DNA of 63,132 nucleotides, counting the filler, from Rhabdomonas costata (Eukaryota): the NCBI GenBank assembly GCA_019059605.1. It is 47 parts of 47 records of this genome, joined end to end, with 100 filler letters (N's around TTAATTAATTAA, not from the genome) between each part and the next. Parts side by side here need not be neighbours in the genome. Positions count along the whole stretch, not along the records: positions 16,140 to 17,385 come from JAHMHO010022093.1; 46 more parts are not named here. The stretch is one strand, 5' to 3'. The notes beneath the pieces are model-generated. The model saw only the letters and a program-made list of their open reading frames with translations. It made no database searches and was not told the DNA's origin. Shown here piece by piece: positions 13,878 to 38,078 of this stretch (within the stretch, counting starts at the first letter, position 1; each line of letters opens with the position of its first letter). The position numbers and the translations under genes were made by a program.

Positions 13878-16139
13878 TGTTTCTCAAAAAAATTTTCAGA
13901 ACGAGGGAGCCGCAAGAAACCTGCGGTTTCGATAATACCAGATCCCAAAACCGTTAATGACCACAAAGAAGCGAGAGCACGTGCGAATGAGGTTAAAAGT
14001 CAATAATCCATGCAAGGTCATTCTTGCCAGTGCTCTGAGATTATGAGAATACTCAGCAAACCAACCGGGTTGGCTTCTCACTACGCACACAGAAGTTTGA
14101 TGCCGAAAGAGGTTTCGGAATTACTCACGCCACCTGAGACTCTTGGGTGAAGTTGCTGCACTCCAAAATTAAGGAGAGGTGTTCAGAAAAAGCTCTGCTT
14201 CCAGCCAAAGGGGGCTGAACTGACGGTTGGTAGGCCCCCTAGGGACGCAGAGATGTAAGCAACCGAGCACGAAGAAAAATGATGGGTTGCATTGGCCAGG
14301 GCAAAATAAACACAGTTGGGAAACTGAATAGTAGGATACTACAGACTGCACGCATCCTTGGATCAAAATGAAGTGATGGAACATACATTCTTGCTGTTTC
14401 ATACTCCGGGTTATTTGCCTAGGGTACACCACCGGGGCCTCCACCTGGGGTGTGTTCAGCAACTATTAATTCGTTTCCGCTTAAACGTGTGAATTTCTGA
14501 AAGCTGAGGCGCAGCAAAGGCAGGGTCATCAAAAACTGACACACACACACTGTACAACTTTTCCCGACAGTGCTGGTGCCTTCTTTTTGCGACCTGACTG
14601 GTGCTATTTTGTGGCCCAGAGTAAAAATACCCCTCCTTCCTTCAGAAATCAGCCTGCTGTCCCGCACCACTCTGCAACGGCGCCACTGCGAGCNNNNNNN
14701 NNNNNNNNNNNNNNNNNNNNNNNNNNNNNNNNNNNNNTTAATTAATTAANNNNNNNNNNNNNNNNNNNNNNNNNNNNNNNNNNNNNNNNNNNNGGTGTTG
14801 GTGGGTGTGTTTGGGGTGGGGTGTGGCAAGGAGCCCTTACAATATGCACTGCAAAGGAACGGCGTATAATCTGTAAGTATGGCCTCATTAGCCTGCTTGC
14901 TGAGAGGGGAAGGCTGCATGAATGTAATGCTATAGGTTTTTGGTGAATGCGCAGCCACTTGCCCGCAACGGCTAAGTCGAATGTCCGCGAAGTCCAAGTG
15001 CAGTCATTGAGCTTGGACGTGTGTTCGAGACCGCTGCCCTGGGAACTGAAGCATAAGCAAAGGTCTGACGTCCATGCGGATTGGGCCGGGGGCGGGCGGA
15101 GCGGCCCCCGCGGATCCCAACCTACCAACGAGGAAACGCTGAAAGCAATGCGTTGCGATACGACGCCATTGTTTCCCAGACCGTTTGGTTTTGACAATCA
15201 GTGGTTCAAATAAACTAAGGCTGCCAATGGATTTTAGCCGCGCGCGCTTTCGGCCTGCTGGGGCCCGAAAGGCCCCAGATGAAGAATGCCGCCGGGGAAG
15301 GTAGCCACAACAAGACGTTTTGTCTGAAGGCTAATGCGGGACAAAAAGCAGAGTTGCACCGGCCTCAAAGTGCAATACGGAGGTGCTGTCACGGCCCGGC
15401 TTGCAACCACACCACTTACGTGTAACCCGGCGTCCGCCGGTTGTTAAACTGGGCTCGGTGTTCAGCAGCCGTCTCCCGAATATGCTTTCGCAAAGTGGGC
15501 GCTGTCCCGGCTTACCTTGGGTGTCCCCGAGAGCGTGACTTTCTTACGACCGGTACGGCTTCGACTTGCGTCCAAAGTCCGGCGTGCGAGGGAACCTAAG
15601 GTCTCCCTAGGTCAGGGGTGACCGGTCTGATGCTGCAACGGGGGAAGGCGTGCCAGGCTTTTCGGTCTTTCCTGGGTGCTTGGGTGCGTTATGCAAAGGG
15701 GGCGGTGAGGCGATCTCTCTCTTTAGCTCGGCTTTTCGACCACTCCGGGGTCACCCCGCGAACCAACAGAAGAGGAAGGGGGTACGAGCTTTGCAAGGGG
15801 GTCTTGACTTCTGCGGGCTCGCGGCCTCGGGCTCTACTTATTCACGGGGGCGGGCTGGGTGCGACTCTGGCTACCCCTTCTGCCGCTCCTCCTTTCAAGC
15901 CGGCTGGGACTTACGCAGCACTTACGCAGCAACAGTGCAAGCACAGCAGCGTTCACCACCACAACGGCAGCAGCTACGATTCCCTCACTCTACCTCTCTC
16001 TGGGTTTTGCGCCGGCTCTTTCGCCTCCGCGCTGCTCCCNNNNNNNNNNNNNNNNNNNNNNNNNNNNNNNNNNNNNNNNNNNNTTAATTAATTAANNNNN
16101 NNNNNNNNNNNNNNNNNNNNNNNNNNNNNNNNNNNNNNN

Positions 16140-16840
16140 GTGTGGGGGTTGTGGGTTTCCTGTGAAACTCCCAGGCTGCGTCAACGTTTTCCTGCAAACT
16201 CGAAAGCTTTTTCGTCATCAGCTCCGCCTGCATGTCTGTCTCCAACCCTTGAATGAAAAGGTACCGCAAGTGCAAGTCATGAACAAAAGGACAACCTCTC
16301 AGTAGCTTGGCTCCCAGTGTGAACTGAGACACGAAAAACTGAAAGTTTCCGTCAACTCTCAGCTTATCCAGTCTCCACAAAATGTTGTACTCAAAATTGT
16401 CCGAACAGAACCTGGTCTTCAAGTAAGCTACAAACGCGTCCCACGTCTCAAACGTCTGAGCGTCCCCCACCGTGCCTCTGGCGTGCTGTCCCATCGCTCC
16501 GACCGCAAAGGTGATTGCAACCTGGTCAGGAATACGCCGGTTCATCTTTTTCTCCTCCACCGTAATTATCCACGGCAAGAAATTCTGGGTTACCATCGTA
16601 TGGTGGGAACTCTGGGTCACGTTCCTGCAATTTCCTCAGTACTACTGTCTCTCGACCTGCACCATCTGGGTTCGTACTCTCTGTCAACTTGTCAAGAGCT
16701 CTTGTCATCACTTGAGTTGTCGCCACCTGATTCTGATTCATCAATCGCAAGGCCTCTGCCAAATGCACCAACAATTCCCCCGCCCCAACGGGCTCTATGG
16801 GCGCTGGAAACACCGGTGGAACCGGCAGGACTGTTGCCAT
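16140..16840 (-). mobile_element. gag: Ty3/gypsy-type retrotransposon Gag, frameshifted near 16580 and truncated by the contig end
   Basis: Intronless. PEFPPYDGNP / FLPWIITVEE...TWDAFVAYLKTRF...LDKLR...FVSQF...LRYLFIQGL...LSSLQENVDAA is a retrotransposon-gag capsid pattern split across ORFs 16526-16840 and 16140-16620. Confidence 0.85.
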
Positions 16841-16915
16841 CTCTTGGACTGTACCTGTAGGGCTGGCTCGGTCCCGGCTCGGTCATTCTTTTCTCAAACA
16901 AAAAAATTCAAACTT

Positions 16916-17182
16916 TCCCTTCGACCACGTGTCACAACAAACCAAACTATCCCCACTTCCAAATGAAACCTCTGTTGCCAACTGTCACGAAGTGCCAATC
17001 GACTCCTATTCTCAAGTACTGCCCTCTTTCTGCCACACAAGTTATTGATTTTTTCTGCTACCACGTGTCACGTGTTGCGCTCTGGAACTTTATCAACCTT
17101 CTGCTACAACCTGTCACGAAGTGCTACTTCGCTGCGTTCCCCCGCACTGGTGAAGGAAACAATCCTCTGCTACCACCTGTCA
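16916..17182 (-). repeat. Array of 5-6 degenerate (G)TGACA-NN-TGGTAGCAGA units separated by largely unique spacers
   Basis: Plus-strand TGTCA at 16930, 16983, 17066, 17112 and 17178, each preceded 2 nt earlier by a TCTGCTACCA-like word. A weaker copy lies near 17030-17044. Confidence 0.8.
17156..17175 (-). promoter_or_regulatory. Primer-binding site complementary to the 3' end of initiator tRNA-Met
   Basis: Plus strand GAAACAATCCTCTGCTACCA versus the tRNAiMet 3' end as I recall it (GAAACCATCCTCTGCTACCA), 19/20. On the minus strand it starts with TGG, 2 nt after ...TGACA. Confidence 0.85.
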
Positions 17183-17386
17183 GACGGCACGGCGGGCTCG
17201 GACCAATTACGTGGCTCTTGCGACTTCCCCGCGTAGCCCACTCGATCCGCTCCACTCCGTGGTCCCTCCCGACAAAGCTTTCGCTTTGTGAGCGCTGTCA
17301 ACTCACCTAGGTGAGGAGACTTTCTTTCCCCTTGGTTGGCCTCGCTTTCGCCGATGGCCGGGTAGAGCCCGGCCGCAACCACAACN
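17178..17386 (-). mobile_element. Putative 5' LTR (3' part) of the gag-bearing element
   Basis: Ends ...GTCTGACA (canonical CA terminus) 2 nt upstream of the PBS. The second LTR is not visible. Confidence 0.6.
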
Positions 17387-32497: not shown

Positions 32498-35236
32498 CTG
32501 CGGCGCGCATAACGTCCAGAGAAACATAGCGAGAACCATCGCCGCGGTTGCTACAAAGCATCGCCCACCGCGCTATCATGGGATTCCAATTACGCCCTTG
32601 CAGTCTTTGTAGCAGCTACAACTGCCGTTTGTGGTTGGAGCAAGTCGAATCCTGGATTTGCCCTCAAGTTCATCATGAATCCCCCTCTGTGACGCACGGG
32701 TTATGGTTGTATCTCTCGGGAGAGTTGTTCGAAGTGTGTCCCCTGAGAGGGGTTCTTGGTCTCGAAGTGAACCGGCACGGCACATTAAGAGGACTGTTTG
32801 AGTTACTTGCATGGAGCGCGTCATGTCACAAAGTGAGAGTGACAGCAAAAACCCACCATGAAACCTCAATGGCGAGATGTGATGACCCTCACAAGGTCGT
32901 TTTAATGCCCAAAAAAGGCTGAAAAATTCCTGAAGCACCCCATAAAGTCGCGCGCCATGAGAGAAAACCATGTCACTATGTCGCCTTTTCAGTGCGTCGT
33001 TTGCAAAGATAACTGCTCCTAATAACCATATACTGTTCAAAAATGCAGCCTTTTAATAGACATTCCACAGCACACTCTTTCCAAGGAAACTTCGCTTATA
33101 AGGTTAGGGGTCTCGAAGGTCTCAAAGTGATCCGGTACAACGTCAAGAGGGATGTTTGTGTCCAAGTATATACGCTAAATTGGATCTCACGGGGGGATTA
33201 CAGGGCAAATGCACGTGTCATATGGGAATGGTTGTTGGTTTGGCGGGACGGCAGGGAAGGTCGGTGCATGTGCACCTGGATTTTCAGATGTGTTGGAGGG
33301 GAACAGAGGGCAAGGTAACCGTTGGGTTTCGTCCGGAATGTCATGAATGAGTTTTAACTGGTTCCGGTCTCAAGCTAAACCTCAAGCAAAGCTTCACCTG
33401 CACTTTCAAGAGGGATTCAAGATCCAACTTCGCCCAGTAATGCTATCGCTTCGCTTCTCCGCACTGGCGAAGGTGCATCCTGGATCCACCCCCTGAACAA
33501 GTGCACCTTGGATCCCACCCCGTGCGTCGCCTCCTAACCCCCACCACANNNNNNNNNNNNNNNNNNNNNNNNNNNNNNNNNNNNNNNNNNNNTTAATTAA
33601 TTAANNNNNNNNNNNNNNNNNNNNNNNNNNNNNNNNNNNNNNNNNNNNTACTTGCTTAGGGGTCCTGAAAGAAAGTCATTGCGTGTGTACGGGAATAAAT
33701 ACCGAATTCTGTGACCCAGCAAAAGGCACCCAATTGGGCAGAGCTACTGCACTCCACAGCTCCACAGCCCAAACCCAAGTGCATCATTCAATCTTTCAAA
33801 ACCTTATTGGGACACTCACTCCAGTGGGGTGGGTGCGAGCACATAGCAGGACTTGTAGAAACCGGGCAGTAAGCGTCCCGCTGCCGCTCCAAGTACTCCG
33901 ATGACGCCTAATAATTCTGATGCACGTTTCTCTTTTGCGATGGAGAGATGTTTTAACATCCAACATCCCACACACCCCATAGCCCCATTACTCCTTTTCC
34001 CTGCCCCGACTTAGGTACCGTCTACGACTATAACACCAACACAAAAATGCCCAGGTTTTGCATCCAAAATACCCCCCCCAAAAAAAAAAAACGAAAGAGC
34101 AAAGATCTGTTTTCCTGAGTTGTCCCCCCAAGTCAACCCATTCCCCAGCCTCCTTGCCTTGAAGACCCTTGCAGACGGATAGGGTTGCAAATATACCGCT
34201 CTTCTTCTCCTTCTCCTCCTGTTCCGATTCAGCCAACGGGCCAACATGAAGGACGTGAAAAAGACTGAACAAGACTGAGCAAGCTGAATATTGCAAAAAC
34301 CAAAAAAAAAAAAAGTAGCGCAGAAGAGAAATATCGAGGGGAACACTTGGCTACAGGACTTGGACTGTTGGCAAGCACTTGGACGTGGGACGATAGCGTT
34401 GTAGTTGCGAACAATTTACAAGGAAAACACACAAACACAAACACAAACACTGAGGCCAGTGTACTCTTCTGGCAATTTGGAACGCTAATGAGCCCGGTTT
34501 GTGGCGTTTCTGGCGCGTGTGCACACACAAACACACTAACTCTATGAAGAAAGAGTAATATTTGATATTTTTGCGAAAAGGGGCAAAGTTCTCCCTAAAA
34601 AAAACCTCAGATAAAACCTTCCGCTGCTCGCCGTACAAAATATGTCCATCGCGATTGTTTACCGAGGCAGCGGCATCATCAACAAACCGAATAGACACTT
34701 CCACAGACACTGCACAAGGTCATGCAAAAGTGCCGACCTGGCGCTCCGACAGAGGGCTCACTGCCCGCTCGTCGAGCGTCTGATGAAACCGCAGCTTCTG
34801 CGGCTCCACCGTAAAAAGCCGTCGGAAGGCAACACCCCACACCGGGGAGCTCTCGGGAAGGATGCACCCACACACCCAACCACACCCACCACANNNNNNN
34901 NNNNNNNNNNNNNNNNNNNNNNNNNNNNNNNNNNNNNTTAATTAATTAANNNNNNNNNNNNNNNNNNNNNNNNNNNNNNNNNNNNNNNNNNNNGGGGGGG
35001 GGTGCCGACCACTTACCTTCACCAAGCCGGTTTGGAATCTGGAAACCTTTGGGGGCACAGCCTTCTTTAATCTGCGTTCTTTTTTTTAGACCAACTGGCC
35101 CATCCAGGTAACATTCCCAAAATTCGCTCCCACGTTTCTCTCTTTATGGTTTTTGGGGTAACAAGGTTCACAGGTATGGAATGAGATAAAGTGGGTAGAG
35201 TATGGCAGGAAGCGGAGCTCCATCTCGTACGTACAG

Positions 35237-36338: not shown

Positions 36339-37294
36339 CCCCCCGACGTGCGCGCAGCGGTGCGGGCCTGGCGGGCCTCCGTGAGGTACTCCACTACGCG
36401 CAGGGAGCCGCTCTGCGCGGCGCACATCAGCGCGGTGAGGCCCTCCGCAGTGGCCGTGTTGACGTCCACAACATGCTCTGAACAAAAGCATGCATACAGT
36501 ACTCTCAGAGAAACGGCCACACACTGCAACTGGCAACTTTCAGCGGTGTTTTCCAACGATGGAATGCTTTGAACACCAACAACGTTTGCTAACGGTTACC
36601 AAACTTCTGCCGAAAAAGGTGCATATGGAAAGTCAATGAACAATACCACGCGCATGCGCAGCAAGGGCAGCGCGCAGTCCGAAGTAACATCACTGGTCAA
36701 TGCACCTTTGCGGACATTGTAAAACTAACCAGTCCAATCGGTAACCGCAAGGTTAATGACCTTTGGAGTCCAGACCCTCGACAAAGCACAAAGGCGTGCA
36801 CACACAAAGAGCGTCTCAGGTTTTTCTCAAGTTCATTTCATTTATATCATTCAACCACGGTTCTGATTGCACGGCGAGTGAGGGAGAATCCAGATGACAG
36901 ACAGCTGCAAGGCAAGCGCGCGTTCACGATGCCTGCCAAATGCAGCGCCACCTCCTCGTGGCCGTGCACGCAGGCGAGCATCAGTGGGGTCACCCCAGAG
37001 GCATTCACAGGGTCCAGTGGGTCCCTCAACTCAGAATGCGGTGGCCTCTCACCCACCAGCGGGCCTTCCTGGGAAGCAGCAAGAGTCCCAGAAGCAGCCG
37101 ACGCTCGAGCCCGCTCTTGACTGGTGATGAGCTGCACCACACCAAGGTGACCCATCCGAGCGGCATGTGTCAACGGGGTGTTGCCCTCGAGGTCGGTACA
37201 TCGCAGGTCGGCACCTCGGCGAAGAAGGGCGGAGAACACCTCTGGGTTGCCCGCACACGCCGCCAGCCCCAGGGCAGTGTTCCCGTGTTGATCC
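36339..37294 (-). CDS. Ankyrin-repeat protein, exons 37294-about 36933 and 36477 to contig end
   Basis: GNTALGLAA, GNTPLTHAARMGH, GVTPLMLACVHGH and GLTALMCAAQSG ankyrin consensus repeats. Confidence 0.93.
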
Positions 37295-38078
37295 CTAAGA
37301 GGCACGGGAAAGAGGCACAAAAGTTTAGGGGTAAAACATCCTAATCTAAAATGGAATAATACCGTAATCAGGAATCAGAACGAGAATGGGTGTATACACG
37401 AACGGACCAGGATGCTGCAACGCCTGGGTCTTGCTCTTGTAGAACAGTGTGCGCGTGGGTGGGCGGCGGCGGCGCATTTGCGGTTACGCGCTTCCTACGT
37501 CAATTACAATATTTACACTTTTTTACTGTCCGAAGTGGTCGGTTTTCCTAAATTCGAAGTCAACCCTTAAGTACCAAAAAACCNNNNNNNNNNNNNNNNN
37601 NNNNNNNNNNNNNNNNNNNNNNNNNNNTTAATTAATTAANNNNNNNNNNNNNNNNNNNNNNNNNNNNNNNNNNNNNNNNNNNNGTGGGTTTTTAACAATT
37701 GGTGATGAGAAAATTACCCATTTCGCGATTTCTTTACGAAGGTAGATGGATCGCATAAACCAGCTGAGGGAACCCTGAGGAACTAGGGTCATGGGGGAGG
37801 GGAGGGGGTGGAAAGCGATACACGCGCGGAGTCCTATGCGGCTCGATATGCGTCCTAGAGAAGATAGAGAAGATAAAACTGCCCAAAAGTCATCGTTTTC
37901 GTGATAGTCAAGTAATGGAACGGATGGGAGGGGAGCGGGGAGGAAGGTTTGCCATGCTTGGCCATTATGGCTGGCCAGGGTCCATGCTGGAAAGTGTCCA
38001 AACTCTTTTATTTTTGGTGCGGAAATTCCAAAAAGCCCAAGGGAGCCACCCTCACTGACACGGCAGTCTACCTGCAAA

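Follow-up and report, generated by a model that had tools for sequence, protein, structure and literature searches.

Why should the junction between the end of a long terminal repeat (LTR) and its primer-binding site (PBS) stand five times in a single retrotransposon leader? Only at the PBS junction does an LTR element have to match a tRNA of its host, and host silencing is known to target this junction; a leader with several such junctions could be either a fossil record of repeated strand-transfer errors or an alternative-priming device that lets the LTR boundary move. The array described here is present in one dead copy on an unplaced contig, and we therefore offer it as a lead rather than as a result.

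The window, by which we mean the whole 63,132-base stretch of DNA that was analysed, consists of 47 contigs of 1236-1261 bp each and contains 92 runs of exactly 44 N. The contigs are joined by 46 artificial linkers of 100 bp each (N44-TTAATTAATTAA-N44), and sequences on the two sides of a linker are not real neighbours. The whole element, array included, is confined to one unplaced contig of 1246 bp (16140-17385, minus strand); the sequence on either side of these limits is unrelated to it. In our judgement this contig is best explained as the 5' end of a Ty3/gypsy-like LTR retrotransposon, now dead, whose array arose by re-copying of its own junction, a joint reading that we hold tentatively and with somewhat less than even confidence. 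Elsewhere in the window, an open frame at 36850-37374 (minus strand) encodes ankyrin repeats (Ank_2, E 4.8e-16), the sole Pfam match among 34 long window ORFs scanned.

On the minus strand, the contig opens with the 3' part (R/U5) of a putative LTR (17178-17385), which ends in ...CCGTCTGACA and is truncated at 17385, where the contig stops. The contig holds no second LTR for comparison, and with only 208 nt upstream of the first junction, the identity of this part as an LTR stays putative. It contains a perfect 14-nt palindrome (CTCACCTAGGTGAG, 17302-17315, minus strand), about 125 nt upstream of the PBS, which is a potential R/U5 hairpin. Between the first junction unit and gag lies a purine-rich leader of about 274-290 nt. 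ARAGORN found no tRNA gene in the 63-kb window, Rfam gave no match on contig 16140-17385, and the leader RNA is predicted to fold worse than its shuffles (minimum free energy -77.5 versus -86.9 kcal/mol, z = +1.93); given the folding and the Rfam result together, nothing points to a structured RNA element. Pfam matched nothing on the three ORFs that overlie the array and gag on the opposite strand.

A gag remnant behind the leader

Downstream of the leader, a gag remnant occupies 16140-16858 (minus strand), where it is cut by the contig end. It was delimited by tblastn with two environmental Gag proteins (P0002 and P0005), which aligned in frame 3 over 16858-16583 and in frame 1 over 16587-16144, with 64-65% identity in the conserved part; the change of frame between the aligned segments places one gag frameshift near 16584. 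The first ATG after the array (16884-16886, minus strand) opens a frame that closes after 64 codons, and the ATG of the Gag-aligned frame is at 16840-16838 (minus strand). The start of the 64-codon frame, MTEPGPSQ, resembles the N-termini of relatives (MGEPTSEQ, MSAGEPSTG), so that a second, earlier frameshift is possible.

When searched with Pfam, the Gag fragment of the window gave a match to Ty3_capsid (E 5.8e-4, 19.8 bits) that lies below the cut-off of 29.1. Five Gag relatives behaved similarly, Ty3_capsid being below the cut-off in 4 of 5 and Retrotrans_gag in 3 of 5, whereas zf-CCHC exceeded it in 2 of 5. In the Atlas, the clusters that came nearest were Retrotrans_gag/zf-CCHC, at 0.94. 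Among 5.8 billion proteins the Gag family (P0001-P0011) comprised five clusters at E<=0.001, all of them environmental and none with a precomputed Pfam domain, and this small, purely environmental set suggests that the host lineage is poorly sampled. A metagenome scan yielded one related locus (L001, 1258 bp), which begins at gag residue 71 and hence comes without a leader. Blastn and tblastx of the array contig against the other 46 contigs of the window revealed no further copy, and no gag relative was found in viral contigs or in prokaryote genome contigs.

Junction units, shared cores and unlike spacers

The LTR-adjacent unit (unit 1, 17164-17190, minus strand; GTGCCGTCTGACA-GG-TGGTAGCAGAGG) was recognised by pattern match, by ungapped alignment and by a 27-nt profile. 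Here a CA-terminated end is followed after two bases by the PBS (...CTGACA-GG-TGGTAGCAGAGGATTGTT), within the 0-3 nt by which a PBS follows an LTR end. Bases 5-11 of this PBS reproduce an acceptor strand starting with A, the hallmark of eukaryotic initiator tRNA. The predicted working PBS for initiator tRNA-Met is 18 nt long (17158-17175, minus strand); it agrees with the human tRNAMet(i) PBS, as printed in the methods section of PMC1797187, at 17 of 18 positions. Complementarity of the leader PBS to tRNAiMet had been asserted in the earlier note, and at unit 1 this holds; judged by its sequence, unit 1 is a genuine initiator tRNA-Met PBS junction, and the true one of this element.

That note had further described five units of the form TGACA-NN-TGG, and we found the terminal A of each where it was said to be, at 17178, 17112, 17066, 16983 and 16930 (minus strand). 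Behind unit 1 follow unit 2 (type A, 17098-17124; GCACTTCGTGACA-GG-TTGTAGCAGAAG), unit 3 (type B, 17052-17078; GCAACACGTGACA-CG-TGGTAGCAGAAA, within CACGTGACACGTG), unit 4 (type A, 16969-16995; GCACTTCGTGACA-GT-TGGCAACAGAGG) and unit 5 (type B, 16916-16942; GTTTGTTGTGACA-CG-TGGTCGAAGGGA), all on the minus strand. Pattern and alignment identified each of these, and the pairs 2/4 and 3/5 also emerged as shared repeats. The sequence that two units were reported to share is GCACTTCGTGACA, common to units 2 and 4.

To the search pattern GTGACA-NN-TGGTAGCAGA (that is, GTGACANNTGGTAGCAGA), with up to 3 mismatches allowed, the 63,132-base window contains 5 matches, every one of them minus-strand and between 16918 and 17183, against an expectation of 0.41; none of 100 shuffles reached five. 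Because the leader is purine-rich, the test was repeated with dinucleotide shuffles of the 274-nt leader alone, which gave a mean of 0.0145 extra copies compared with the four observed beyond unit 1, and four were reached in 0 of 2000. The outside control consisted of 121 loci fetched from other collections, 120 of them picked for one exact match to TGACANNTGGTAGCAGA; a second match at <=3 mismatches occurred in 1 of the 121, and three matches in none. All six mismatches of units 2-5 to the search pattern fall in the PBS half, with GTGACA intact in 4/4, a placement whose chance we estimate at about 0.06. Among candidates set aside, the 120 loci matching the junction pattern, from genome contigs, proved to be single chance matches, all without gag, and 56 viral-contig loci retrieved with gapped array patterns were regular, constant-period repeats, likewise without gag; the exact junction pattern had no match in viral contigs.

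A profile of the 27-nt unit, run over both strands of the contig, recovered exactly five units, the next best hit scoring 2.7 against a null 95th percentile of 7.6. As the profile finds these five alone, no unit is hidden in the LTR part, and the weaker copy that had been noted near 17040 is reduced in rank: the PBS-like sequence is there (TGGCAGAAAGAGG, 17035-17023), but it does not amount to a full unit. We list it as a weak remnant of the PBS alone, TTGTG-TGGCAGAAAGAGG, with no TGACA end in front (17023-17040, minus strand; 10/18 pairs, predicted -11.3 kcal/mol). As a separate observation, the surroundings of unit 3 (CACGTGACACGTG, 17056-17074, minus strand) contain two CACGTG palindromes one base apart, which form a small hairpin in the minimum-free-energy fold.

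Ungapped alignment of the five units delimits a similar stretch of 27 nt, made up of 13 nt of U5 end, 2 variable bases and 12 nt of PBS. The U5 end has the consensus G-y-n-n-n-n-t-s-GTGACA, with CTGACA in unit 1, and the 2-nt gap is kept in all five units although its bases vary (GG, GG, CG, GT and CG in units 1-5). The proposal that each unit derives from a U5 end plus a PBS is thereby borne out, since all five align as one 27-nt junction core, and units 2-5 are by this alignment evident paralogues of the element's own U5-end/PBS junction.

Between the 20-nt cores lie spacers of 46, 26, 63 and 33 nt, followed by 29 nt to the ATG; from start to start the units are 66, 46, 83 and 53 nt apart, and as these spacings are not multiples of three as a set, a coding repeat was excluded. 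The spacers had been called largely unique, with simple decayed tandem duplication named as the outcome that would speak against the earlier note's reading; what we found is that the spacers cannot be aligned with one another, 0 of 15 pairwise comparisons among spacers and upstream stretch reaching p<0.05. Mean pairwise identity is 0.66 in the cores, whereas in the flanks it is 0.25, the random value, a contrast that is partly made by selection because the cores were picked as the similar part. Tandem Repeats Finder reported 0 rows. We also ran simulations in which the spacers diverge no further than the cores of units 2 and 4 have done (0.81 identity): the S2/S4 spacer pair scores 4, while equal divergence averages 16.2 in the simulations, none of 1000 of which was that low; for the other two spacer pairs tested the fractions were 0.036 and 0.099. 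With cores 66% identical and spacers random at 25%, the array is not simply a decayed tandem repeat, and, despite the way the cores were chosen, the size of this contrast argues against neutral decay of a tandem repeat of the whole block. The idea that the spacers are read-through copies of more of the tRNA was judged by eye only, and dropped.

The extra units alternate between two types. Units 2 and 4, 129 nt apart, share GCACTTCGTGACAG in the U5 part (14/14 bases), and units 3 and 5, 136 nt apart, share GTGACACGTGGT (12/12 bases). The resulting A-B-A-B order looks like a duplicated two-unit block; the intervening sequences, however, contradict simple duplication.

None of the spacers matched the other 46 contigs above the empirical null. 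The best weak matches, both at E 0.06, joined spacer 1 to the contig at 32304-33548 (28/35) and the LTR part to that at 14794-16039 (27/34). Neither stands out: in a lenient alignment the contig at 32304-33548 scores 48, and six other contig strands score higher and two equally. Within that contig, a 35-nt stretch at 33441-33473 (minus strand) is 80% identical to spacer 1 and is preceded by two tandem look-alikes, TGGGATCCAAGGTGCAC and TGGATCCAGGATGCAC; it may be a chance resemblance or a very distant relative of the leader.

Primer pairing along the array

In order to compare the units as primer sites, the reverse complement of unit 1 was used as a model primer end and all units were scored against it. 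In-register pairs for units 1-5 numbered 18, 15, 11, 13 and 12 of 18, an order that is not monotonic, and uninterrupted pairs counted from the 3' end of the primer numbered 18, 1, 10, 3 and 4; the low value of unit 2 reflects a primer whose penultimate base is already unpaired. Predicted duplex energies fall monotonically towards gag, at -30.9, -18.1, -16.9, -11.5 and -8.6 kcal/mol, an order that for four units would arise by chance about 1 time in 24 by our arithmetic. A gradient from a most intact LTR-proximal unit to a most diverged gag-proximal one, as previously proposed, is thus seen in the energies but not in the pair counts. Beyond unit 1, the model suggests that a plausible priming run, of 10 contiguous pairs, is kept only in unit 3.

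Re-copying, selection and other readings

The account that we prefer, with slightly less than half of our belief, is that the array arose through repeated short-patch re-copying of the junction in reverse transcription, which left mostly dead relics. Minus-strand DNA synthesis would be primed by initiator tRNA-Met at unit 1 (...CTGACA, two bases, then a PBS of 18-20 nt), and template switching during PBS-dependent strand transfer would re-copy the junction, the kind of error behind the partial PBS duplication of HIV-1 MAL. Each such event would bring in unrelated filler and so yield unlike spacers, and the A-B-A-B pattern would require at least one additional duplication or conversion. The LTR-adjacent copy would be rewritten from the tRNA in every cycle and stay perfect, while displaced copies, no longer rewritten, would decay. 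The anatomy, the match to the tRNA, the difference between cores and spacers and the dead state of gag are established here; the copying mechanism and the lack of function are what we infer. With the usable 10-pair run found only in unit 3 of this copy, the extra units would be mostly relics. In favour of re-copying we count the five in-register units, the tRNA match of unit 1, the single shared 27-nt core between unalignable spacers, the fall in duplex energy, the unstructured leader RNA, the frameshifted gag and the HIV-1 precedent described below. Its weak point is the identity of the U5 parts (2/4 and 3/5) amid random spacers, which would not be expected of units added one after another and decaying with age, and which hints at constraint on the cores or at their conversion. 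Also against it are the confinement of mismatches to the PBS half, the non-monotonic pair counts, the part that the choice of cores plays in the core/spacer contrast and the fact that one decayed copy is seen.

Those same conserved cores amid random spacers would be expected if the array had been kept by selection, its units being working modules on the RNA or the cDNA, an alternative that we consider unlikely but take seriously. They might be alternative or back-up priming sites for initiator tRNA-Met, each with an integrase-type ...GTGACA end two bases upstream, or else a repeated binding site for Gag/nucleocapsid or a means of packaging extra primer tRNA. The exact 2-nt gap in 5/5 units, with varying bases, is what a CA-end/primer junction needs, and both the intact GTGACA of all four downstream units and the kept TGG start agree with selection. 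The Ty1 PBS is 10 nt long, a length that the uninterrupted run in unit 3 equals. That run also exceeds the 8-nt 5' PBS segment of Ty3 (nt 121-128), and elements that use tRNAiMet are described as requiring further tRNA contacts downstream of the PBS (both from the part of PMC4974528 available to us); on the plus-strand side, Sireviruses retain clusters of extra polypurine tracts as a counterpart (available part of PMC2829016). Set against this, in units 2, 4 and 5 a mismatch falls among the last 2-5 primer bases, leaving runs of 1, 3 and 4 pairs, and the duplex energies of the extra units amount to a quarter to three-fifths of that of unit 1 (-8.6 to -18.1 versus -30.9 kcal/mol), although in this dead copy the primer mismatches may equally be late decay. 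A more far-reaching form strikes us as improbable: selection would have kept, throughout the family, a set of modules at any of which minus-strand synthesis could start, every one with an integrase-type CA end, two-base gap and tRNAiMet site. Were it true, inner priming would lengthen both LTRs by the upstream modules and rewrite the inner PBS perfectly from the tRNA, and the element could shift its LTR/leader boundary and replicate despite a first PBS blocked, for example, by tRNA fragments or PBS-binding repressors. Fragments from the 3' end of tRNAs are reported to act through the PBS (preprint 10.64898/2026.01.22.698655), and the earlier note had suggested the array as a decoy for them; this is weak on principle, since further PBS-like sequences in cis would give such fragments more targets, not fewer.

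The units might also be read as DNA, as transcription-factor sites that form an enhancer in the transcribed leader, for which we see rather little chance. Every unit contains an E-box-like hexamer (CA-NN-TG), TGACAG and TGACACGTG resemble homeodomain and bZIP/bHLH sites, unit 3 lies within CACGTGACACGTG, and repeats with unique spacers are what an enhancer could look like. The leaders of other LTR elements do carry repeated protein-binding motifs, such as the leader enhancer of copia and the Su(Hw) sites of gypsy. The gypsy leader, with 12 Su(Hw) sites, resembles the present one in being a Ty3/gypsy-type leader with short conserved cores and unlike spacers right behind the PBS; its cores, however, have no relation to the U5/PBS junction and are bound by a known host protein. 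An E-box factor normally fixes the central two bases, which differ among our units, and there is no reason why the conserved 27 nt, if a DNA-binding site, should have exactly the limits of the U5-end/PBS junction. A leader block duplicated in tandem in the ordinary way and then neutrally decayed, or an assembly artefact of a repeat-rich contig, would account for the spacing of 129 and 136 nt between like units and for the single source in a 1246-bp unplaced contig. We nevertheless find this pair of explanations very improbable: the silence of Tandem Repeats Finder and the S2/S4 score of 4 where 16.2 is predicted (0/1000 that low) speak against decay, and the units differ from one another and are shorter than typical assembly words, which would make a graph loop unlikely. 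Least credible of all, in our estimate, is the reading from which the analysis started, that the units are remnants of earlier LTRs, all different, left by serial replacement or capture, so that the array is a dated record. In murine retroviruses the U5-PBS region is known to be replaced by recombination, the spacers here are unique, the most intact unit adjoins the LTR and pairing energy falls towards gag, all of which would suit it. The U5 parts, on the other hand, are versions of a single 13-mer, two of them identical, and so do not look like the ends of different LTRs; spacers of 26-63 nt are too short for LTR remains and match nothing above the null in the other 46 contigs; and an A-B-A-B alternation at about equal spacing (129 and 136 nt) does not fit a simple time-ordered series.

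Relative to known systems, we rate the multiple copies of a whole junction as the new element here, PBS duplication and leader repeats being of an already known kind. No description of U5-end/PBS junction arrays was found in open-access full text and bioRxiv, where "PBS" is an ambiguous term. The closest parallel to re-copying is HIV-1 of the MAL type, where a 23-nt insertion downstream of the PBS, a partial PBS duplication, is reported in 14% of isolates; in the accessible part of that report (PMC3185550) it is a natural partial extra copy just behind the working PBS and presumably a reverse-transcription error. The HIV-1 case, as described there, is a single 23-nt copy of the PBS only; in the present leader there are four full copies and one remnant, and the full copies add a 13-nt U5 end and a 2-nt gap and have 26-63 nt of unique spacer between them.

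Pairing with the primer tRNA at two or more stretches is also found in Ty1 and Ty3 (PMC4974528) and in Gypsy (PMC1635307), two of which use initiator tRNA-Met. As far as the available text of these reports goes, the additional stretches of these elements are complementary to different arms of that one tRNA (T-psi-C, D, anticodon stem), and those of Ty3 and Gypsy sit at the 3' end of the genome. The extra sites of the array, in contrast, repeat the same acceptor-end complement, and one tRNA therefore cannot bind them together. Sireviruses offer a likeness at the opposite end: identical polypurine tracts are clustered upstream of the 3' LTR, so that a replication primer site is repeated beside an LTR with variable sequence between the copies, and the available part of PMC2829016 assigns them no function. 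Theirs are plus-strand primer sites, and according to the same text the upstream copies come without the attachment-site bases; every unit of the array, by comparison, retains its CA end and 2-nt gap.
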